From positions 32,001-96,000 of the IMG/VR virus record IMGVR_UViG_3300036803_000075: a DNA stretch of 64,000 nucleotides. One strand, written 5' to 3'. A program made the position numbers and the translations under genes. Of the stretch, positions 4,575 through 61,473 are shown piece by piece. The stretch comes from a virus. Its lineage: Duplodnaviria > Caudoviricetes. The first letter of the stretch is position 1; each line of letters opens with the position of its first letter. The notes beneath the pieces were generated by a model that ran no database searches, had not been told where the DNA came from, and worked only from the letters and a program-made list of their open reading frames with translations.

Positions 4575-6170
4575 CTAGAACGGCCAGGTCGCAGACTGCC
4601 GAGCCTCCAGGAGGCCGATCATCTTGAACGTCTGGTCATTCATACCGCCAAACTCGTGGCGGTTGTCCTTGCCGGTTCCAACCTGGGTGTTGGCGTACCC
4701 ACCCAAGTTGAACCCATAGATCGGGATGTTCGCCGGCACCAGCGTGTCCGCCGGGTCGAGGGCAGAGCCTCCCCACGAGGAGCCGAAGGTCTGCATGTCG
4801 CTGATTACGACGACCCGCTGGTGTACGCCCCGCTTGAAGTGCGTCTTGAGTGCCCGGTGCATCTCCGTACCGTGACCGACCTCGCCGACCCGGTTGACGA
4901 ACCTCTCGACCTCCTTGAGCAGCGAACCGCCCTTGGGGATCTTGTGCGTGAACGTGCTGTTGGCGAAGCCGACCAGGTCCACGTCCTGACCCGCCTTGGC
5001 CAGCGCCACCCCGAAGATCGCCGCCGAGTGAACCGGCGAGACCTTGGAGCGCTCCGAGTACGTGCTGGTCATCGACGCCGAGGTGTCCACCAGGATCAGG
5101 GTCTTGCCGGACAGGGCCGGGATGTTCTGAACCGAGTGGGTCAGCGCCTCGTCCAGGGCCTGCCCCCACGCGAGGCTCGGAGCCGCCTGGTAAGCACTCC
5201 AAAACCGGTAGGGGAACTGCCGCGACCGAGCAACCTGCTCCGGATCGGAGAGACGCTCTGCGACGGCCTTACGAGCCGCCGGAGAGATCCCCGCCTCGTC
5301 GAAATTCCGAAGGTTCCGAAGCAGAGCCATGTAGCCCATCGACGGCGCGATTTTCTCCCAGACCTCAGCGTCCATCGGACCCTGGATCCAGCCCGAGATG
5401 GCCTCCCAGGTCATGCCAGCGTCCTTGAGCGTCTGCGGCGACATCTCCCGCAGTGCCTTCCGACGGTCAGCGACCGGAATCTCCTCCAGCTTGGTGCGCT
5501 GGAAGATCATCTTGAGCGAGTCCGGGACCTGGAGATCCGCCCGGTTGTGGCGCTTGTCGAGCAGGTACTTGTACAGGTCGGACTTCCAGGGCGCGACCGG
5601 CTGCGGGTGTACGAGGTCGATCACGTCGGCCATCCGGAAGGCCCGGGACTGGCCGTCGTACTTCATCGACGAGTACTCGTTGTAGACCTTGTCCACCGCG
5701 TCCGCGACACCGCGCTTGAGACCACCAGAGACCTTGTAGCCCATGGTCTGGGCGTACGCGAGGATCTCAGCCGGCTCATCCGCCCGAGACACCGCACTGG
5801 CGATGACACCCCGGGGCAGCGGGCCACCGGCCTTGGCGTACTCCACCGCAGCGACGATCGAGGCCGAACGCATGTTGGCCTCGTTGCGGAGCCAGGGGAT
5901 CAGCCGGCGGATCCAGTCCGGGTCTTCCTTGGTGACCTGGCGAACGAGATCCCGGAAGCGCCGGTCGCGGTCTCCGGCCTTCTCGTAAAACGAGTCTTCA
6001 CCCACCATGTTGACCACGGCGAGCATGAACAGGTCGGACTTAGCGTCCCGCGAATACGCGGTCGCGCCCTCATACGAGATGGCGTCCGCACCGGTTGCCT
6101 GCACCGGACTGGTGAGCGTCGCGGTCGCGCCGCGCGCCTTGGCCTTCGAGTCGAACTTACCCATGATCAT
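4575..6170 (-). CDS. Ro60/Rsr-like TROVE-domain RNA-binding protein with C-terminal vWA domain
   Basis: TROVE signatures (SFYE, RADEPAE, MADVIDLVHP, TWE, MGYMALLRNLRNF, SRQFPYRFWSAY); vWA MIDAS LILVDTSASM, GHGTE, VVISDMQ. Confidence 0.93.
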   Translation of the reverse strand: MIMGKFDSKAKARGATATLTSPVQATGADAISYEGATAYSRDAKSDLFMLAVVNMVGEDSFYEKAGDRDRRFRDLVRQVTKEDPDWIRRLIPWLRNEANMRSASIVAAVEYAKAGGPLPRGVIASAVSRADEPAEILAYAQTMGYKVSGGLKRGVADAVDKVYNEYSSMKYDGQSRAFRMADVIDLVHPQPVAPWKSDLYKYLLDKRHNRADLQVPDSLKMIFQRTKLEEIPVADRRKALREMSPQTLKDAGMTWEAISGWIQGPMDAEVWEKIAPSMGYMALLRNLRNFDEAGISPAARKAVAERLSDPEQVARSRQFPYRFWSAYQAAPSLAWGQALDEALTHSVQNIPALSGKTLILVDTSASMTSTYSERSKVSPVHSAAIFGVALAKAGQDVDLVGFANSTFTHKIPKGGSLLKEVERFVNRVGEVGHGTEMHRALKTHFKRGVHQRVVVISDMQTFGSSWGGSALDPADTLVPANIPIYGFNLGGYANTQVGTGKDNRHEFGGMNDQTFKMIGLLEARQSATWPF

Positions 6171-15686: not shown

Positions 15687-16099
15687 GTACTGCCAAAGCG
15701 ATCTTCACCGCGATTGTCAGTCTGCTGGGCATAGCACTCATCCTGGTCGTGTTCGGTTTCTTCGCCGGCTGGTTCCGGGCTGGAGTCGAGGTCATCAGCC
15801 CTGAGAACGTCAAGGCTCAGTACCAGTTCGGCTACAGCTACGACCGTGGCATGGTCGCGCTGGCCGGCACCTGGTGTTCGGCGAAGCAGGCTGAAACGAC
15901 CGAGACGAACCCCGATTACAAGGCCCAGCGGGCCAGCCAGACACTGGCGTACGGCAATCAGTACAGGTCCGTCGAGGCTCAGTACGACGCGGCGATGGCC
16001 AACGCCTTCCAGGCAAAGCACGTCAAGCCCGCAGATCTGCCGCTGGTCGCTCCGACGTTGCCCGAGAGGGTGGCGAGCTTGGGGCTGACCTGCGGATAG
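15683..16099 (+). CDS. Membrane-anchored hypothetical protein
   Basis: GTG start overlapping the lipoprotein stop; N-terminal TM helix. Confidence 0.7.
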   Translation: MSTAKAIFTAIVSLLGIALILVVFGFFAGWFRAGVEVISPENVKAQYQFGYSYDRGMVALAGTWCSAKQAETTETNPDYKAQRASQTLAYGNQYRSVEAQYDAAMANAFQAKHVKPADLPLVAPTLPERVASLGLTCG

Positions 16100-16106
16100 T
16101 AAGACC

Positions 16107-16180
16107 GGGACGGTAGCTCAGTCGGTTAGAGCGGCGCTCTGATAAGGCGCAGGCCGGAGGTTCGATTCCTCCTCGTCCCA
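16107..16180 (+). tRNA. tRNA-Ile(GAT), also the leader of repeat array A
   Basis: GGGACGGTAGCTCAGTCGGTTAGAGCGGCGCTCTGATAAGGCGCAGGCCGGAGGTTCGATTCCTCCTCGTCCCA is a canonical cloverleaf. Confidence 0.93.
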
Positions 16181-16680
16181 CGGCTACTCAGGTAGCTCGT
16201 GGCGCGGTTGGGCATGGCACGGCCAGGCGAGGCACGGCCTGGTTTGGCGCGGCGGGGCATGGCTTGGGATTTACCAGGACGACCGGCAGTCTCTGGGGTT
16301 CGAGACCTCAGCGTCCACGCCCACTTTGGTGGGTCATGGTGCGGTCGGGCGTGGCATGGCGTGGCACGGCGTGATGCGGCAAGGCTTGGGATCTACGGGG
16401 TGACTGGCAGCCATCAGGGTTCGAGGCCCTGACATCCACGCTCGCTTTGGGCGGGTCAGGGCATGGCCGGACGCGGTTCGGCACGGTGGGGTGCGGCATG
16501 GCGTGGTGCGGCATGGCTAGGCCTGGCGTGGGATCTACAGCGGCAGTGGCACACGTCCTGGTTCGAGTCCAGGAGCCGCACGCACGGCTCGGCTGGGTCA
16601 GGTGTGGCAGGGCGACGTGTGGCATGGCTGGGAATATACAGCGGCAGATGCGTCCTGGTTCGAATCCGGGAGTCTGCACG
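16181..16680 (+). repeat. Array A: four GGY-NN pentamer tracts separated by tRNA-like minihelices (putative guide-RNA array)
   Basis: Tracts 16201-16265 (13 units), 16338-16387 (10), 16460-16529 (14), 16586-16630 (9); minihelices 16277-16317, 16398-16438, 16540-16580, 16644-16678. Confidence 0.92.
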
Positions 16681-16808
16681 CACTACGAAGCTGAGTAGGT
16701 TGGCTAAGCCAACCCCTATCAGCCTAACCACTACTTGACGCAGAGTCGAAAAGGTGATTCCATTCCTCTCGTCATAACCGCCAGAGATCAGGGAGAGGAA
16801 CCCCAAAA

Positions 16809-17414
16809 GTGGCGATCAACGATATGAAGCTAAAACTGACCGGGACGACCCCGGTGCTGTTTCACAACAGCCAGCTCGTCAACCCGTTCAACCCGATCAA
16901 CCGGGAGAAGAAGAAGCTCACGGACAAGCGCACCAAGCAGACCGACGAGGACCGCATCCAGGTCGCTCGGCTGGAATGGACAGGCGGCTGGTACTGGAAC
17001 GACGAGCACGGACCCATCCTGCCGATGATCAACGTCTACGCGGCGCTGCTGAAGGCGGCCAAGAGCACGCGCAACGGTCCTCTGGTCGACAAGGGCGTCA
17101 ACTTCTTGCGCCTGACCGAGCCCCTGCAGTACGACGGCCCCCGTGACCTGGACGGCCTGTGGGGCAACGGCATCGGCGAGGGTGGCGACCACCCCTCTCC
17201 GTACGTCGATTACCAGGCCGTCGGCCAGCAGGCGGTCAAGATCATGCGCTGCCGGCCGAAGCTGAGCGAGTGGGAGCTTGACACCGTCTTCGGAGTGGAC
17301 GACACGGTCATCGATCCCGAGGCGTTCCTCGGATTCATGGCCTACGCTGGCAAGTACATCGGTGTTGGGGACTTCCGTGCTATGTACGGTAAGTTCAGCG
17401 TCAAGGAGGTCTGA
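16809..17414 (+). CDS. Cas7/RAMP-like protein, putative effector of the GGY-NN array
   Basis: N-terminal strand LKLTGTTPVLFHN, PILP..NVYAALLKAAK, RCRP...W, C-terminal Gly-rich loop AGKYIGVGDFRAMYGKFSV; flanked on both sides by the arrays. Confidence 0.75.
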   Translation: MAINDMKLKLTGTTPVLFHNSQLVNPFNPINREKKKLTDKRTKQTDEDRIQVARLEWTGGWYWNDEHGPILPMINVYAALLKAAKSTRNGPLVDKGVNFLRLTEPLQYDGPRDLDGLWGNGIGEGGDHPSPYVDYQAVGQQAVKIMRCRPKLSEWELDTVFGVDDTVIDPEAFLGFMAYAGKYIGVGDFRAMYGKFSVKEV

Positions 17415-17415
17415 G

Positions 17416-17970
17416 TTGACTGCTATCTTCGACTCCGAAAACCCGCAGTGGCGGCCGATCTACGACGGTCTTAAGAAGGCCGGTCTCGAATTCGATCGTC
17501 TTTTCAGCTGGGACACACTGAAAGCCATCGCAGGATACGACATCCGGCTGAATCGCAGTGCCTTCTACGCGGCAGTAAAGCAGCTGGAAGAGCACGACAA
17601 GCGTACGTTGGTCAGTGTGTGGGGCAAGGGATATCGCGTGGCTCCAGCGCCCGAGCATCATAAGCTCGGGCTCAAGCACCAGCTCAAGGCCAAGCGTGCC
17701 GTACGGCGCGGCGCGCGCAAGGTCAAGGCGGCTGACACGTCTCATCTCACTGCCGAGCAGATCCACGCCAACGAGCAGCTGATCTTCCGACTCCATCGTC
17801 ACGAAACTCAGCTGATCAACCACGAGACCCGGATCAGCGCACTGGAGAGGGAGACTGGGAAAACTCGCCGTGAGCTGGACGAGTTGAACAAGCAGTCTGA
17901 GCTGGCACGCCGGCTCAAGGCGCTGGGTATCAATGTCCCCAAGAGTGCCCCTGACACCGTCGAGGGGTAA
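17416..17970 (+). CDS. Partner protein: putative winged-HTH plus coiled coil
   Basis: TTG start 1 nt after the RAMP stop with AGGAGG SD; wing-like LVSVWGKGYRV; C-terminal heptad pattern. Confidence 0.7.
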   Translation: MTAIFDSENPQWRPIYDGLKKAGLEFDRLFSWDTLKAIAGYDIRLNRSAFYAAVKQLEEHDKRTLVSVWGKGYRVAPAPEHHKLGLKHQLKAKRAVRRGARKVKAADTSHLTAEQIHANEQLIFRLHRHETQLINHETRISALERETGKTRRELDELNKQSELARRLKALGINVPKSAPDTVEG

Positions 17971-17973
17971 CAG

Positions 17974-19447
17974 GGCCTGGCCTGGCCGGGTGAGGCGGGA
18001 CGAGGCTAGGTGAGGCGAGGTTCGGCAACGTCGGGCCGGGTAGGGCGAGACTGGGCGCGGCGAGGTCAGGCTGGGTTGGACAAGGAAGCACAAAATGGGT
18101 GACTGGCAGTCTCCGAGGTTCGAGGCCTCGGCACCCACGCTCCTTTCGGGAGTCAAGACGGGGCAGGGCGCGGTGAGGTGTGGCCTGGTGGGGTGAGGCT
18201 TGGCGTGGTGAGGCTTGGGATTTTAAAATGGACGACCGGCAGCCACTAGGGTTCAAGGCCCTAGCGTTCACGCTCACTACGGTGAGTTGAGGCCCGGTTT
18301 GGTACGGCAAGGCGTGACAGGGCATGGCTCGGCCCGGCGAGGTCCGGCGCGGCAGGGCGCGGCATGATTGGGCGCCGTATGCCATGGCAAGGTGAGGCAT
18401 GGCAAGGAATTACAGAGCGAGCGGCACACTTCCGGGTTCGAGTCCTGGACGCTCGCGGCCGTCCTCGGGCGGCTCGTGGCAAGCCTAGGTTGGGTTTGGC
18501 ATGGCAATGTTAGGTAGGGCTCGGCTTGGTCCGGTGCGGCAAAGCGCGGTTAGGTTTGGCATGGCAACAAACTGGGTGAGCGGCACACTCTTCGGTCCGA
18601 GTCCGAAGCACCCACGGCTACTCCGGTAGCTCGTGGCTTGGTGCGGCGCGGCAGCGCATGGTTGGGCCTGGCATGGCAGGGAATTTACTGAGCGGATGGT
18701 CGTACGGGAGGTTCGACTCCTCTTGCGTTCACGCCCTCTTTGGGGGTCAGGGCACGGCTAGGCTGGGCGCGGTAGGGCTGGGTACGATTCGGTCTGGCGG
18801 GGCAAGGCTTGGGATATACCAGTGCGAATGGCATACCTCTCGGTTCGAGTCTGAGACGCTCACGCTCTCTTCGAGAGTCAGGGCAGGGCGACGCCAGGCA
18901 TGGTTAAGTTGGGTGCGGCTGGACGCGGTGCGGCAAGGTTTGACTTGACGTGGCAAGGCGAGGCAGAGCTGGGTCAGGCAGGGCAGCAACAACACTGTGT
19001 CGACGGTCTTCGAGAGGGTTCGACTCCCTCTGACACGCGCTCTCTTCGAGAGTCAGGGCGGGGCTAGGCAGGGCAACGTATGGCCCGGCGCGGTAAGGCT
19101 TGGCTAGGTTGGGTTGGGTCCGGTGGAGTGTGGCTAGGTATGGAGTGCCGACGGTCTGCGAGGAGGTTCGACTCCTTCTGGCACACGCTCTCTTCGGAGA
19201 GGCGGGGCTAGGTGCGGCGTGGCTTGGTGGGGCACGGTGCGGTCAGGCCGGGCATGACAAGGATCAAAAATCTGGACGAGCAGCACACTTCTGGGTGCGA
19301 GTCCCAGACGCCCACGCTCACTCCAGTGAGTACGTGGCCAGGCGTGGCATGGTAGGGCACGGTCCGGCTGGGTCGGGCGCGGTAGGGCTAGGCACTGGGC
19401 ATGGTTTGGTACGCCTAGGTGAGATGTGGCATGGCTTGGTATGGCAG
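17974..19447 (+). repeat. Array B: ten GGY-NN pentamer tracts separated by nine tRNA-like minihelices
   Basis: Tracts 17974-18083 (22), 18157-18216 (12), 18291-18405 (23), 18478-18567 (18), 18635-18679 (9), 18751-18810 (12), 18882-18986 (21), 19057-19141 (17), 19201-19260 (12), 19336-19447 (22, one 2-nt slip). Confidence 0.92.
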
Positions 19448-19468
19448 GGATCTGTTAAAATCCCTGCC

Positions 19469-19819
19469 ATGAGCACCTGAAGAGATCGAAAGCCAGCGCT
19501 GTCCGTCACCAAGGACGATTGTGAATGGCAGTATTTTCGAGCCGGCGGCCCTGGCGGTCAGCATCAAAACAAGACCTCGTCCGGGGCTCGGGTGATCCAC
19601 CATCCGTCCGGCGCCCGTGGCGAGTCCCGGGAGGAGCGCAGTCAGCTCCAAAACCGTAAGGCTGCCTGGCGCCGGATGGTGGCCGATCCGAAGTTCAAGA
19701 TCTGGATCAACACCCAGCTTTATGGTCTCGAGCTGGCGGAATCCAAGGTCGCCAGGGACATGGCGGAGAAGAACATCCGGGTCGAAGTCAAGAAAGACGG
19801 GAAATGGATATGCCAGTAG
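19469..19819 (+). CDS. RF-1-domain (GGQ) release-factor/peptidyl-tRNA-hydrolase-like protein with an in-frame TGA at codon 4
   Basis: Hand translation upstream of track ORF 19592: YFRAGGPGGQHQNKTSSGARVIHHPSG...ERSQLQNRKAAWRRM; begins ATG AGC ACC TGA AGA. Confidence 0.8.
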
Positions 19820-20360: not shown

Positions 20361-22435
20361 GCTGTCGGAGTCACCCAAGTAGTTCCATTCCACACCTTAA
20401 CGGGCGCCTGTACCCATGAGGTTCCATTCCAAATCTTTACTGGCGCATGCACCCAAGTAGTTCCATTCCACACCTTCATCGCGCCGCCGGAGGGGGCCGT
20501 GTACGTCTTCGTCAGCGTGATGTGGCTGGCACCCGAGGAGTCATAGCCGGTGCCCGTGACGGTGATCTGCTGGCCATTATCGACAACATCGAACCAGCCA
20601 TATTGCTGGCTGTAGACCGAGCTGCTCTGGGGCACCGGGTAGATCCCAGCGGAGTACGTACCGTTGCCGGCATAGGTTGTCTGGTCCAGCGGTGAGGCAC
20701 AGAAGATCTGCAGACCGCTCGGGGAGTGGGTCCCGTCATCCGCCGCCAGCACATGCAGGTCACCATGGATCATCATCACCCGGACACCGTTGGCGTTGAT
20801 GAAGTTGCCGATCTCCGTACGCTCGGTGTTGTAAGCCGACCAGGTGTCGTCGCCGACGTACGTGGTGCCGTTGTTCCACGCGTCCTCATGGAACCAGATC
20901 TTGACCGGCTCGGGCTGCAGCAGCTGAGCCTTCAGCCAGTCCTTCTGGGTGCTCCCGAGCTTGGTCTTGCTGGAGTTGTCCGTCTGGGCGATCGGACTCA
21001 TGTACGACCGGCCGTCGGTGCAGATATAGCGCACCCGGCCGGCCACGAAGGTGAAGTACGTTCCCGCGTTGTCCGCCGCCGGCAGCGTATAGCTCGGCAC
21101 CCGGTTCCGGTAGACGGACTGGGCAGCCGCGTGGGCGACCGCAGTACCGTCGTTGTTCGAGCCGCCGCCGGAGTCGTGGTCAGACCAGATGTAACTGATG
21201 CTGGTGCTGGAGAAGAGCGACTGCTGCCGCTGGCAGCTCATCACCTCGTCCCACGCCCGGTTGAACAACGTCGTGTCATTGGCCACGATGTCTCGGTAGT
21301 TCAGGTCTCCCAGGTGCTGGAAGAACAACGCCGTCCGAGATCCCGCCCCCACCGAGCCGGTGCGTGTGCGGATCTGGTCGAAGTTGATGTCATTACTGAA
21401 GGTCTTGGCACATGAGGCAGCAGCGAAGGAATAGCTAGCGGGGCTGCCTGCTACCGGGAACGTCCGCACCGTACCGACAGACTGGGTGTCGATCGTTCCG
21501 TCCAGCTCCAGACCGTAGTAGTACGTGGTGTTCGCAGTCAGCCCTGAAATAGCGAACTTAGCCAATCCATTGGCGTCAGGCGTGGCCGCGCTGGAAAAGA
21601 CTGGGCTCGTCAGCAGATCGCTAGTGGTAGAGACCTTCACCCTCGCGGACGCCGTGTTAACCGTTCGAGAGGAGACATTGAATCCAGTAGCGGTCGCTCC
21701 ACCGGCCCAACGGGAAAGGCAGGTCTGGTACATCGCTGGGTATCCGACATCGGAAAATCCCGCATTCGCTGCGTAATAAGCGATAGCGGCAGTGGCGTTA
21801 ACCGTCCCTACCACGCCGCAGTACATAGCCGTGCCGGTGTTGAATGTAGCCGTGCTGGTGATGGTCTGGGCAGGTGAGCCAAAGGCTGCAGTCGGGAAGG
21901 ATCGAACCTCCAGCTGCCCGACCGTGGCAGAGAAAGTCACCTTCCATTCAATGCGACCCCAGGTATTCGCCGTCAAGGCACCCGTGGTGGTCGTGGCGGC
22001 AGACGCTCCTGTCGAATCCCGAGCTGAGATCAGACCACTAGAAAGCACTCGCAGAGTAGCCATGATAGCGCCCGAAGTATTCAAGATCGCCATGACGGCT
22101 TGGGAGCTGCCTGGAAGCGAGGGAAAGTTAACGTCGATCCAGCCATAAATGGTGGTCGCGCTCGTCTGGAACATCCCCGCTGGACTAGCGGCGCCAGTGT
22201 TCCACCGGGTATACGCCTGGGCGTCGGTGGCATTCGCTACTACGTGAAGGGTATTGACTCCGGTCGACCGTACGACCGTATTGCTGTAGGCCAATGCTGC
22301 CGTACCACCGATCGTGGGCAAGAAGTCAAAGGCCCATCCAGGCCCACCACCAGAGTTGCCGGCAGTGGTAGGCATGTTAGGCACCACCAGCGCCGCACCA
22401 TTGGGGCCATTCAGGCTATTGAAAACTCGCGTCAT
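20357..22435 (-). CDS. Virion-associated protein: beta-sandwich + FN3-like + PhoD-like metallophosphoesterase
   Basis: FAAASC, HLGDLNYRD, IWSDHD, TDGRSY, LG..QKDWLK, IHGDLH motifs; C-terminal VKxWNGTxW x3; lies at the end of the tail module. Confidence 0.8.
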   Translation of the reverse strand: MTRVFNSLNGPNGAALVVPNMPTTAGNSGGGPGWAFDFLPTIGGTAALAYSNTVVRSTGVNTLHVVANATDAQAYTRWNTGAASPAGMFQTSATTIYGWIDVNFPSLPGSSQAVMAILNTSGAIMATLRVLSSGLISARDSTGASAATTTTGALTANTWGRIEWKVTFSATVGQLEVRSFPTAAFGSPAQTITSTATFNTGTAMYCGVVGTVNATAAIAYYAANAGFSDVGYPAMYQTCLSRWAGGATATGFNVSSRTVNTASARVKVSTTSDLLTSPVFSSAATPDANGLAKFAISGLTANTTYYYGLELDGTIDTQSVGTVRTFPVAGSPASYSFAAASCAKTFSNDINFDQIRTRTGSVGAGSRTALFFQHLGDLNYRDIVANDTTLFNRAWDEVMSCQRQQSLFSSTSISYIWSDHDSGGGSNNDGTAVAHAAAQSVYRNRVPSYTLPAADNAGTYFTFVAGRVRYICTDGRSYMSPIAQTDNSSKTKLGSTQKDWLKAQLLQPEPVKIWFHEDAWNNGTTYVGDDTWSAYNTERTEIGNFINANGVRVMMIHGDLHVLAADDGTHSPSGLQIFCASPLDQTTYAGNGTYSAGIYPVPQSSSVYSQQYGWFDVVDNGQQITVTGTGYDSSGASHITLTKTYTAPSGGAMKVWNGTTWVHAPVKIWNGTSWVQAPVKVWNGTTWVTPTA

Positions 22436-31974: not shown

Positions 31975-34668
31975 TTACCCCTTTGTCTTCGACGGCTCAG
32001 TGGTCGACTGGATGACCTTGGCGATATCCACCACGTAATCCGCCGTCGAATCTCCCGTCACGGTCGGTGCGTAGCCACCTGCCATCGGCAGGCCGATCAG
32101 CACGTTGTTCTTGTCCGTCTTGGACTTGGGCAGCCGGGCGGGAGCCGCGATGTTCGCCGACGTAGTGAAGCTTCCGCCATCTCCGAAGCGGAAGTTGTGC
32201 GTCACGGTGGTGACGTACGCCTGGAAGTCAAAATCGGGGATCTGGATGAGCATCCCCGGAAACAGCTCCGGCATAAACGTCATGGGGACGTTTGCGTTGT
32301 ACTGGTAGGCCCAGTTCTGCATGAACTTGTAGAGCGCATAGAAAAATCCCGCTCGTAGCCCCTGCAGATGATTGGCCTGGTCCAGATTGGGCCGAGCGCC
32401 GAAGCGCTTCAGGACCCAGTGGCTGAAGTTCGAGGCCGCCTGCGCGGTGGTGCTGACACCCAACAGCGCGTACAACACCGAGGGGATCTCCACTGTCACA
32501 ATGCCCATCGTGGTAGCCGCCGCCAGCGGAATGGAACTTCCTGTGACGTTTCCGGTAGCAAGATCTACCTGTGGAGGAGCCTGATCCGGGCCGGCCGTCG
32601 CGTACTGATGGGTGACCAGATAGTCGTCCGACCAGGTGACAGTGAAGTTCTGCAGCTCGACCGGCTCCAGCACCATCACGGCGGCCGTGCCCCAGAGCCC
32701 GTAATAGTCGGGGAACCAGGCGATCAGATCACCATTGGGAGCACTGCAGAACGAGCGCATGGTCGAGGTCAGCAGAGTTTTGAGATAGGGCAGCAAAGGC
32801 TGGTCATTCAGAAGAGCGCGAACACCACTGAGCGAGTTGGCCAGGATGGCGTCCGGATCCGAAGAGGAAGATGGAGTGGCAACCCAGGGCAGAGAACCGA
32901 ACAGGGAATCGAACCTGTCGTTGGGGTCGTACTGCGGCGACTGGTCGTAAGTCGACACCTGGTATCCCGGGTTGATCACACCCGCGCCGTTAGACAGACC
33001 GTCGATGGATCCACCAGTAATCGCTCCGGACGGGATGACGTTCGGCAGGATGCATGCCGCGTTCCAGTAGCTCTGTGAGGTGGTGGCATTTCCGTTACGG
33101 ATACCTGTGCCGTGCGACCCTGTGGTGGTCTTGTTATCTCCCACTGTCAGCTCGACGTGCTCTCCCAGAACGAACACACAAGCGCCTGGGATTTTATAAG
33201 CTTCGGCCACCGAGATCTTCTTGCCACCGTTGGCGATCGCCCAGTAGTACTGAGCCGTCGCTGTCCTGGGAATGTCCGACTTCCCCGTGGTGTGGTAGTA
33301 GCACCATTTGATGAACAGCGAGCAGTCCAGCGCTGTCGGGTTGTTCGTCTTGTAATCCTGGGCGGCCTGGCTGTAAGCGATATTAGGGTGTGCTGCCCAA
33401 AGTGCCTGACCGACCGCCAGCAGGTCTGCTGTGGTCTTGCCTTTGGGGGCTGTACCTGCGGCCGATGCAGCCGTAGCCGGACCGTTCACACGCTTGCCCG
33501 TCAGCGGGTCGATGTGAGTGGTCTGGGCAATGGACTGAGTAGACGCGGATGGTGCGCTGACCTGACTTTTGGACATGGCCGCCACTGCCGCCACTGCCAT
33601 TGGCCAGTACCTCGTATAGCGAGAGACCAGGTCCGACCGATACACCTGGATCTTGAGCGACATGGCGCCCGGATCGACCGTTTGCCTGGCAGCAGTGTTG
33701 GGGTACTTCCCTTTCATAGCCCGGAAGAAGATCCGAGCTGAGGTAAGCGGGTTCATCCGCTCAGCCAGTGAGCCCCAACCGGATCGCTGTTGGAAGATGC
33801 CCCGGGAGTCCGGGCCGGCCGCATCTCCAGAGCTGGTGTTGTGCAAGCTCGATTCCTGTCGAGCGGTCATAATGCCTACCGCGATGTCTCGGAGGGTCAT
33901 TCCCTCCATGACGCCGGCCTGATAGATCTGCTCACAGATCGTGCATTGATCACCCGAGATCGAATAGCCGCCGTACGTCCCAGCCGGCAGCCGAACGCTG
34001 GTACCCGACGCAGCGCCCCCTAGCGAGTCTGTGGAAGACCCCGCGACCTGACCGCCACCCCCGAGCTTGGTGTAGTACTGCGCGGCCAGCTGATTGGCTG
34101 TGGCAGCCAGGCCGTCCACCGAGGTGGCGATCTGGAAGGCGATGTCGAACCAGCTCTTGGGAATCTGGCTGATGTGCACTTTGGACTCCGGCCACCCGAC
34201 GACCTCACGCAGAATGGCCAGCACCACGTTGGTGATGTTGCCGTCGTCGGTAGCGGACTGGCCGGCATTGGGACCGGTCTGCACACGGGCGTTCAGAGCC
34301 TTCTGGATCAGGTTCTGGGTGTAGGTGACGTAGGAGTCCCAATACCAGTACTGAAGCCGTTTGAGAGCGCATGAGGCGGTAATGGGGACCGCCTGGGGCC
34401 ACGCTGTGGCCAGCGGTACCGAGTTGAGATACCCAGTGAAGGTTCGCAGCCAGGTCAGCCGCTTCATCACTACCGCGATGCGGTCGTTCGGAGCAAAGAC
34501 CCCGTCGTACTTCCGCCGAGTGTTCTGCAACGTGAAAGAGAACGAGGAGACCCCGTCCGAACGCAACTCCATGGACCCCTCGACGAGGTCATCGGATACG
34601 TCCAACGTCCCGTTGTTCTCGGTAGAGATATAAACCTTGATACCTGGTTGATACACAAACGTGCCCAA
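31975..34668 (-). CDS. Baseplate hub protein with lysozyme-like and NlpC/P60 peptidoglycan-hydrolase domains
   Basis: TARQESSL.N...DSRGIFQQR.GWG (lysozyme-like); ALDCSLFIKWCY...IPRTA..QY...GEHVEL (NlpC/P60); FMPELFPGM hub C-terminus. Confidence 0.8.
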   Translation of the reverse strand: MGTFVYQPGIKVYISTENNGTLDVSDDLVEGSMELRSDGVSSFSFTLQNTRRKYDGVFAPNDRIAVVMKRLTWLRTFTGYLNSVPLATAWPQAVPITASCALKRLQYWYWDSYVTYTQNLIQKALNARVQTGPNAGQSATDDGNITNVVLAILREVVGWPESKVHISQIPKSWFDIAFQIATSVDGLAATANQLAAQYYTKLGGGGQVAGSSTDSLGGAASGTSVRLPAGTYGGYSISGDQCTICEQIYQAGVMEGMTLRDIAVGIMTARQESSLHNTSSGDAAGPDSRGIFQQRSGWGSLAERMNPLTSARIFFRAMKGKYPNTAARQTVDPGAMSLKIQVYRSDLVSRYTRYWPMAVAAVAAMSKSQVSAPSASTQSIAQTTHIDPLTGKRVNGPATAASAAGTAPKGKTTADLLAVGQALWAAHPNIAYSQAAQDYKTNNPTALDCSLFIKWCYYHTTGKSDIPRTATAQYYWAIANGGKKISVAEAYKIPGACVFVLGEHVELTVGDNKTTTGSHGTGIRNGNATTSQSYWNAACILPNVIPSGAITGGSIDGLSNGAGVINPGYQVSTYDQSPQYDPNDRFDSLFGSLPWVATPSSSSDPDAILANSLSGVRALLNDQPLLPYLKTLLTSTMRSFCSAPNGDLIAWFPDYYGLWGTAAVMVLEPVELQNFTVTWSDDYLVTHQYATAGPDQAPPQVDLATGNVTGSSIPLAAATTMGIVTVEIPSVLYALLGVSTTAQAASNFSHWVLKRFGARPNLDQANHLQGLRAGFFYALYKFMQNWAYQYNANVPMTFMPELFPGMLIQIPDFDFQAYVTTVTHNFRFGDGGSFTTSANIAAPARLPKSKTDKNNVLIGLPMAGGYAPTVTGDSTADYVVDIAKVIQSTTEPSKTKG

Positions 34669-61177: not shown

Positions 61178-61237
61178 GGCGTGGTTGGGCCAGGTGTGGC
61201 GCGGCTGGGTGCGGCGGGGCACGGCACGGCTAGGTAA
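61178..61237 (+). repeat. Orphan GGY-NN tract (12 units)
   Basis: GGCGT GGTTG GGCCA GGTGT GGCGC GGCTG GGTGC GGCGG GGCAC GGCAC GGCTA GGTAA; intergenic. Confidence 0.88.
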
Positions 61238-61243
61238 AACACG

Positions 61244-61278
61244 CAACAGCCCCGGAGAGCGAATCTCCGGGGCTGTTG
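61244..61278. terminator. Terminator hairpin after the orphan tract
   Basis: CAACAGCCCCGGAGA-GCGAA-TCTCCGGGGCTGTTG. Confidence 0.7.
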
Positions 61279-61473
61279 GCTATCTGGAGCTACTTGCCGT
61301 CTCGCTTGGTGTTCTGGACGCCTGTGTTCGGCCTGGGCCTGCCTCCGGTGCCCTGACGCTGCGGCAGTACCGGCGGATCGTGCTTGGGCTGATAGTTAGC
61401 CGGCCGCTTGGGATTGACCTGACCTGACGAGTCAGAGTGCTTGGCCACGGGGAAGAATCCTCCTAGGAAACGG

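Follow-up and report, generated by a model that had tools for sequence, protein, structure and literature searches.

A phage VIPR guide array with tRNA-like spacers in a probable actinomycete virus

Introduction

IMG/VR virus record IMGVR_UViG_3300036803_000075 (Duplodnaviria; Caudoviricetes) contains, between its positions 32,001 and 96,000, a stretch of 64,000 nt (hereafter the window, whose numbering is used throughout) in which tracts of GGYNN pentamers alternate with conserved spacers on both sides of two small genes. This locus raises the question of what the tracts encode, how they would be read and what function the spacers serve. A framework is provided by VIPR, a DNA-silencing system encoded by phages that was published in 2026 and reads two target bases before skipping the third (10.64898/2026.04.26.720920, hereafter the discovery paper). 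The locus was identified here, practically beyond doubt, as a phage-encoded VIPR system, and 13 of its spacers were found to be 41-nt tRNA mimics comprising a short acceptor stem, a D-loop-like loop, a T-arm and a discriminator (Table 1). The GGY/NN code is already published, and its decoding is not a discovery of the present work.

Identity of the locus

The 201-aa open reading frame (ORF) located between the two arrays matched Vipr of SUSP1 (PDB 36PP) with an E-value of 2.1e-17, as the sole match among 177,635 sequences, and its predicted structure (pLDDT 93) is that of a RAMP with an RRM core, a thumb and a G-loop, the best fold matches being Cas7/Csm3 RAMPs. Residues H19, K35, R149, D188, F189 and R190 align, as counted on the alignment, to SUSP1 H17, K33, R138, D177, W178 and R179, all of which are named in the consulted part of the cryo-EM structure paper for reading G1, G2, Y3 and the skip-base backbone; H19, R149, D188 and R190 are invariant across 24 homologues. 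The protein is about 28% identical to homologues in Felixounavirus-type coliphages, and the product of the adjacent vap1-like gene resembles that of the gene beside SUSP1 vipr (26% over 124 aa, pairwise E 3e-5). It is the combination of Vipr homology with kept GGY-reading residues, the vap1-like gene and the GGY/NN guide tracts that identifies the system. No CRISPR array or cas genes were found at the minimal locus, cas genes elsewhere in the contig not having been searched for. A structured, covarying 3′ element follows the tracts, except T14 and a distant solo tract, and is tRNA-like rather than the SUSP1 pseudoknot. SUSP1 sits on a long branch of a quick Vipr tree, and the vap1-like neighbour makes type II a possible placement.

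Parts of the tracts are called 5-, 10- and 15-bp repeats by Tandem Repeats Finder, as would be expected of slippage microsatellites or of degenerate repeats without guide function. Such an origin is nevertheless extremely improbable, since NN takes all 16 values while GGY stays fixed, most of the 87 related loci that were scanned contain tracts, and the VIPR family has been characterised experimentally. The original prediction, made from the letters of this DNA, had likewise set the tracts apart from slippage microsatellites and proposed selection on register.

Structure and distribution of the tRNA-like spacers

The spacers share a common fold: a first stem of 5 bp leads into an 11-nt loop containing a conserved GG, which is followed by a 6-bp stem closing a TTCGA-type T-loop; the first stem is then completed by its second strand, and an A or G is left unpaired. 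This fold is that of a tRNA acceptor stem and T-arm joined by a D-loop-like linker, without the anticodon arm. As single-sequence folding of the spacers was not significant (z -1.6 and -1.8), the structure rests on covariation. In alignment A3, which retained 31 copies from 10 sources out of 45 candidates (of the 14 dropped, 13 had loops of 10, 12 or 13 nt and one was judged false), the covariation score was 0.833, with 123 cells changed on both sides and two-sided changes in 10 of the 11 stem pairs, and this score was reached by none of 500 shuffles. It weighs against the fold that the aligned stems had been preselected for pairing, which inflates the percentage paired. Outside this preselection lie the tertiary pairs of columns 7-13 (17 two-sided changes) and 14-29 (13), spotted by eye in the same sequences, which we take to resemble tRNA elbow contacts.

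Rfam provided no family for the spacers, apart from one tRNA-Sec match below threshold, and in the array region ARAGORN and Rfam RF00005 called only the tRNA gene at 16107-16180, the spacers having no D-stem or anticodon arm. A model of the element (R1) gave 38 matches in 1.12 Mb from 88 sources; these fell in 12 sources, included the 31 training sequences and all adjoin tracts, with no match elsewhere in this phage or in the SUSP1 loci (L001 and L083) and a weak one in locus L007. Another locus, L239, found by protein alone and outside the model, carries an element between its two tracts that scores 50.7 bits and has all three tertiary pairs. The same element is present in 13 other VIPR loci, including those of the cultured phages LittleE, Trine and MakoManhole and that of prophiBWHA-1. 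These carriers cluster in the quick Vipr tree, where the element label needs 5 changes compared with 13 in shuffles; a single origin is not proven. Most elements are followed by a 5-7 bp hairpin before the next tract (16180-16200, 16318-16337 and similar), which is mostly absent in related loci; a released guide would begin with this hairpin.

Several related arrays have features of their own. In Gordonia phage Trine, an annotated hypothetical coding sequence (gp40, L085:4588-5391) overlaps the vrRNA array and three tRNA-like elements and may be a mis-annotation. In locus L008 (1591-2956), a single tRNA-like element accompanies three tracts that stay in phase over 43, 50 and 46 units, many more than the 9-16 described. 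A different conserved post-tract spacer of about 60 nt, with nested hairpins, occurs in another Vipr clade (L060-L062, L065-L070, L072-L076 and L079-L081).

Processing signals or retained tails

The spacers were read as punctuation because they lie mostly between tracts and because a real tRNA-Ile occupies the slot before guide 1 with the same trailer. Among 44 elements, 35 lie between two tracts, 7 after a last tract and 2 before a first tract, and the trailer of the tRNA-Ile gene (16180-16202) is identical at 22 of 23 positions to that of spacer 8 (18614-18636). It is proposed that a single transcript of the arrays would be divided into individual guides by host tRNA enzymes acting at the 41-nt mimics, with RNase P cutting at the 5′ end of the mimic and RNase Z after the discriminator base, and that the real tRNA-Ile would do the separating job before guide 1. 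RNase Z acts on tRNAs without CCA. According to the part of PMC11143913 consulted, hairpins made of an acceptor stem and a T-arm are cleaved by bacterial RNase P, which reads their T-loop.

Against this proposal stand the stacks of the mimics, which at 11 bp fall short of the 12-bp length that RNase P presumably measures (same part of PMC11143913), their lack of CCA, and the 7 elements after a last tract, which fit a retained 3′ tail equally well. The elements might instead be 3′ tails that stay on the guides and cap them, like the SUSP1 pseudoknot, with release by other means such as nuclease trimming around the Vipr filament or a 3′-side cut only. A precedent exists in SUSP1, where a structured tail is described, in the part of the source consulted, as capping the filament after every tract; moreover, 42 of 55 tracts have an element within 45 nt downstream, and neither the short stack nor the absence of CCA suits RNase P fully. 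Yet 13 of the 55 tracts have no downstream element, two elements, one each in L085 and L086, precede a first tract and have no upstream tract, a linker of variable length separates tract from element, and a real tRNA-Ile occupies the same slot with the same trailer. The retained tail is therefore a possible but rather unlikely function, and our analysis moderately favours the mimics as processing signals. We lean, with slightly less assurance, towards the more specific view that an actinobacterial branch of VIPR evolved a 41-nt minimal tRNA elbow, its D-loop-like loop clamped to the T-loop by covarying tertiary pairs, as a signal for RNase P and RNase Z; as part of this view, the tRNA-Ile at the array head with the same trailer would illustrate the interchange of real tRNA and mimic.

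Grammar of the guide tracts

The contig was scanned in phase for runs with at least five perfect GGY units, any unit type being allowed inside a run. The scan returned 18 runs on the + strand and one on the - strand, of which 15 lie at 16191-19447, one at 61178-61237 and three are weak background. With tract starts placed downstream of the leader hairpins, the region from 16201 to 19447 holds 15 tracts, which together comprise 211 units, 9-23 per tract, including 186 GGY (126 GGC and 60 GGT) and 25 deviants (GAC 7, GAT 4, CGT 4, GCC 3, AGC 2, CGC 2, AGT 2 and TGT 1). All 25 deviants alter a single G and retain the pyrimidine, the probability of zero purines at position 3 being 7.5e-4 if single changes are evenly spread; this is what had been read from the sequence earlier, and the edge units at 18079, 18157 and 19256 raise the total to the earlier figure of about 28. 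The pyrimidine rule is not an artefact of the caller, since any unit type was accepted within a run. In-phase units of the leader hairpins at 16196, 18473 and 18630, outside the chosen tract starts, have both Gs changed and break the rule, and in 249 tracts of related loci a purine occupies position 3 in 57 of 403 deviant units, as counted with a caller that penalises such units; the rule is strong, not absolute.

The register is broken only once, as the original prediction held, by 2 nt at 19396-19397; the break is also found in a public contig identical over 15900-19600, which is possibly the source of the same DNA and hence not independent. The two NN strings given as examples there (tracts 1 and 8) match the sequence. 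That most tracts end in GGR holds for 12 of 14 guides, in two of them after one extra GAC unit, whereas T8 and T11 end in GG followed by a C/A-rich linker. The repeat unit is better framed as YNNGG, as in 10.64898/2026.04.26.720920, than as GGYNN: the GG of the closing GGR is then the end of the last unit, which accounts for the GGR ends, and in 15 of 16 tracts a pyrimidine lies three bases 5′ of the first GG. The earlier NN strings may therefore lack a first NN. Tract 8 had been singled out as strikingly AT-rich, which is true against the genome (27 of its 36 NN bases are A/T, p 1e-5); against the 55% A/T pool of all NN the excess reaches only p 0.011, so that T8 is not special among the 15 tracts.

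According to the SUSP1 work, one Vipr protomer coats each YNNGG unit, burying GGY and presenting NN to double-stranded DNA, one target base, usually the wobble base, is skipped per unit, and the complex silences genes of competing phages or mobile elements. The Y3 pocket excludes purines in the consulted part of the cryo-EM structure paper, and GGY-to-GGA is listed among the tested mutants in a legend of 10.64898/2026.04.26.720920. With each protomer holding one unit, an insertion would shift every later contact. This model of one protomer per YNNGG unit with a purine-excluding pocket explains why the register and the pyrimidine are kept and why tracts end in GG.

Targets and the one-base skip

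Skips of 0-3 bases have been tested in silico, in vitro and by GFP repression, and only a skip of one gave matches, binding and repression; the skipped base falls mostly at the codon wobble position, one-skip matches are stated for types II, III and V, and no self-targets were found in the published VIPR systems (10.64898/2026.04.26.720920). The proposal in the original prediction that NN pairs specify DNA targets, with one base in three skipped at the wobble position, matches this rule and is supported here through family membership. The prediction had also left room for contiguous reading: of the two options the skip of one agrees with the published rule, whereas contiguous reading is disfavoured by the published tests and by a worse fit to composition. 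We hold with very high confidence that a one-base skip applies here, and with barely less that the locus as a whole is a VIPR system with such a skip.

The check that had been suggested, a search of NN strings with 0-3-nt gaps against shuffled controls, came out negative in the own genome and the 87 related loci, both being weak tests. The own genome was searched with 17 queries at skips 0-3, each compared with 30 shuffles, and the best scores were at shuffle level, with only trivial self-matches at skip 3 as exceptions. Scores in the 87 loci (skips 0-3, 10 shuffles each) were at most 1 above the best shuffle (T5 at skip 3, 29/42; T11 at skip 1, 27/42) and far below 80%, and the solo tract had no target in either set. 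Larger collections were scanned with an exact seed at skip 1 only, in seven scans for 6 of 16 guides judged by their unseeded NN. Against IMG/VR, T8 gave 12 hits (best 8/18 unseeded NN), T7 55 (14/30), T11 17 (10/26), T12 12 (7/18) and T1 15 (4/10), all at chance, and T5 gave none; against GTDB, T7 gave 39 hits (best 12/28), again at chance. An idea that antisense T5 spells a recombinase-like motif received no support in the T5 scan. By arithmetic, an exact 16-base seed would catch only about 7% of targets whose per-base match is 85%; the searches thus miss most diverged targets, and the negatives do not refute the skip rule.

A further line of evidence came from composition. When NN strings were scored by log-likelihood against the phage's own codon statistics, skip 1 fitted the window best (-12.3, compared with -34.4, -30.4 and -34.4 for skips 0, 2 and 3), as it did 48 guides of element-bearing loci (-31, compared with -122, -118 and -122), and codon positions 1-2 were the best fit for 12 of the 16 window guides. 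These positions have 54% GC in this phage, which accounts for part of the A/T excess of NN. For GC-rich loci (131 guides), composition-free dinucleotide odds correlated with codon positions 1-2 (r 0.65, p 0.04), and strand polarisation was detected in related guides (p 0.001; p 0.004 for positions 2-3). Several results count against the skip at this locus: no natural target was found for any guide in the searches made, the own-genome scores being no better than shuffles, so that the skip is not directly shown here; the skip-1 composition signal is mostly low GC; and in the window the composition-free odds show no correlation (r -0.21) and strand polarisation is not significant (p 0.75). The NN composition may alternatively reflect A/T-richer targets or avoidance of C pairing with the GG scaffold.

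A reading of the target with other spacing (contiguous, or with two or three skipped bases), or an RNA target, would accord with the empty one-base-skip searches and with the low identity of this Vipr to the Felixounavirus-type coliphage proteins. However, the thumb and G-loop residues are retained, skips 0, 2 and 3 were equally empty in the own genome and the 87 loci and fit composition worse, and the published one-skip matches span three types, which makes such a departure very unlikely compared with the one-base skip.

Comparison with known systems

The VIPR systems of SUSP1 and of a Pseudomonas fulva prophage (type II; 10.64898/2026.04.26.720920, 10.64898/2026.04.26.720927; PDB 36PP) have vipr, a vap1-like gene and tracts on both sides in common with the present locus, which is also alike in its kept GGY-reading residues and in that no self-targets were found. 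It differs in its 14-15 guides compared with 4, in four tracts of 18-23 units compared with the typical 9-16, in spacers that are tRNA mimics rather than a pseudoknot tail, in the tRNA gene heading the array, and in its probably actinomycete host. Ribozyme-interspersed and staggered VIPR arrays (figs S18 and S19 of 10.64898/2026.04.26.720920) similarly contain several guides per transcript with built-in separation; instead of a hammerhead or a 1-nt overlap, the present locus has a T-arm/acceptor-stem mimic as separator, which would depend on host enzymes. Large arrays staggered by 1-nt overlaps, like those in the discovery paper (fig. S18), were seen at L006:1676-4968, and the Vipr of this locus groups in the quick tree with those of the element-bearing L007 and L008. 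The tract at 61178-61237 lies farther from vipr than the >20 kb by which solo vrRNAs are recognised in the consulted part of 10.64898/2026.10.15.759431; unlike the solo vrRNAs described there, it shares its genome with a vipr gene and is closed by a plain hairpin. The region of this tract (61178-61285) directly follows a secreted-protein-like ORF.

A tRNA-shaped element marks RNase P and RNase Z cuts between RNAs in mascRNA/menRNA, in plant mitochondrial t-elements and in engineered tRNA-gRNA arrays. Compared with these, the present element is smaller (41 nt, without D-stem or anticodon arm), phage-encoded and placed between natural guides, and its cleavage is predicted. The word 'tRNA' is absent from the consulted parts of the main texts of 10.64898/2026.04.26.720920, 10.64898/2026.04.26.720927 and 10.64898/2026.10.15.759431 and from the supplementary PDF of the discovery paper, and passages of a report on VIPR arrays (10.64898/2026.10.21.760802) make no link to tRNA. 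No description of tRNA-like VIPR spacers was found in the literature, on which the papers' figures and data files S1-S4 may bear; the main text of the discovery paper is silent on actinomycete phages (10.64898/2026.04.26.720920).

With the solo tract counted, the locus supplies 15 guides, a large set, from what is probably an actinomycete phage, and its spacers suggest a route of guide release additional to ribozymes and staggered overlaps. Should RNase P and RNase Z of the host cut it, the 41-nt element would be a natural tRNA mimic of very small size, could readily serve to separate multiplexed guides and would be a natural counterpart of engineered tRNA-gRNA cassettes. The cultured carriers LittleE, Trine and MakoManhole make the element directly testable.

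Genomic setting

The window is part of a 107.7-kb phage contig of 62% GC. Its structural genes are of myovirus type, and their nearest named relatives infect Mycobacterium, Gordonia and Rhodococcus, the tail sheath being nearest to myoviruses of these genera; as the structural genes are nearest to actinomycete myoviruses, the host is probably an actinomycete, judging from sequence. The endolysin matches (about 30% identity, mixed) pointed to no genus. Of the 401 Actinomycetes genomes that were searched, two had a Vipr match, one of which was strong. A scan for promoters and terminators remained at shuffle level.

Table 1. Coordinates of the tRNA gene, guide tracts, spacers and VIPR genes in the window.
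Feature	Position	Strand	Evidence
tRNA-Ile(GAT) gene without encoded CCA	16107..16180	+	ARAGORN; RF00005, 71 bits
vrRNA tract T1, 13 units	16201..16265	+	unit count
tRNA-like spacer 1: 5-bp stem, 11-nt loop, 6-bp T-stem, 7-nt T-loop, discriminator	16277..16317	+	alignment + model R1
vrRNA tract T2, 10 units	16338..16387	+	
tRNA-like spacer 2	16398..16438	+	alignment + model R1
vrRNA tract T3, 14 units	16460..16529	+	
tRNA-like spacer 3	16540..16580	+	alignment + model R1
vrRNA tract T4, 9 units	16586..16630	+	
Variant tRNA-like spacer after T4: T-arm intact, loop altered; unmatched by model R1	16635..16677	+	
vipr gene, 201-aa RAMP-fold protein	16809..17414	+	SUSP1 Vipr match, predicted fold, phrog_4652
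vap1-like accessory gene, 185 aa; start read from sequence, overlaps vipr stop	17413..17970	+	phrog_5926; SUSP1 neighbour
vrRNA tract T5, 21 units, directly after vap stop	17974..18078	+	
tRNA-like spacer 5	18097..18137	+	alignment + model R1
vrRNA tract T6, 11 units	18162..18216	+	
tRNA-like spacer 6	18230..18270	+	alignment + model R1
vrRNA tract T7, 23 units	18291..18405	+	
tRNA-like spacer 7	18415..18455	+	alignment + model R1
vrRNA tract T8, 18 units	18478..18567	+	
tRNA-like spacer 8	18574..18614	+	alignment + model R1
vrRNA tract T9, 9 units	18635..18679	+	
tRNA-like spacer 9, 10-nt loop subtype	18690..18731	+	22.4 bits
vrRNA tract T10, 12 units	18751..18810	+	
tRNA-like spacer 10	18822..18862	+	alignment + model R1
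vrRNA tract T11, 21 units	18882..18986	+	
tRNA-like spacer 11	18997..19037	+	alignment + model R1
vrRNA tract T12, 17 units	19057..19141	+	
tRNA-like spacer 12	19145..19185	+	alignment + model R1
vrRNA tract T13, 11 units	19201..19255	+	
tRNA-like spacer 13	19274..19314	+	alignment + model R1
vrRNA tract T14, 12 + 10 units around 2-nt break; no tRNA-like element 3′	19336..19447	+	
Solo vrRNA-like tract, 12 perfect units, 42 kb from vipr; without tRNA-like element	61178..61237	+	
15-bp hairpin closing solo tract	61244-61278	+	z -7.1

Other features were observed in the surrounding DNA. A release-factor-like (GGQ) gene at 19452-19819 begins directly 3′ of the last tract. Between tRNA-Thr and tRNA-Leu/Met genes, a gene at 4578-6170 on the - strand matches phrog_850 'RNA-binding protein'; it is possibly, on our assumption, a Ro60/TROVE gene, and there may be a Y RNA in its vicinity that has a tRNA-like domain. 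Finally, a 39-bp coding repeat (2.7 copies, 20362-20476) is located at the end of a tail-type gene.

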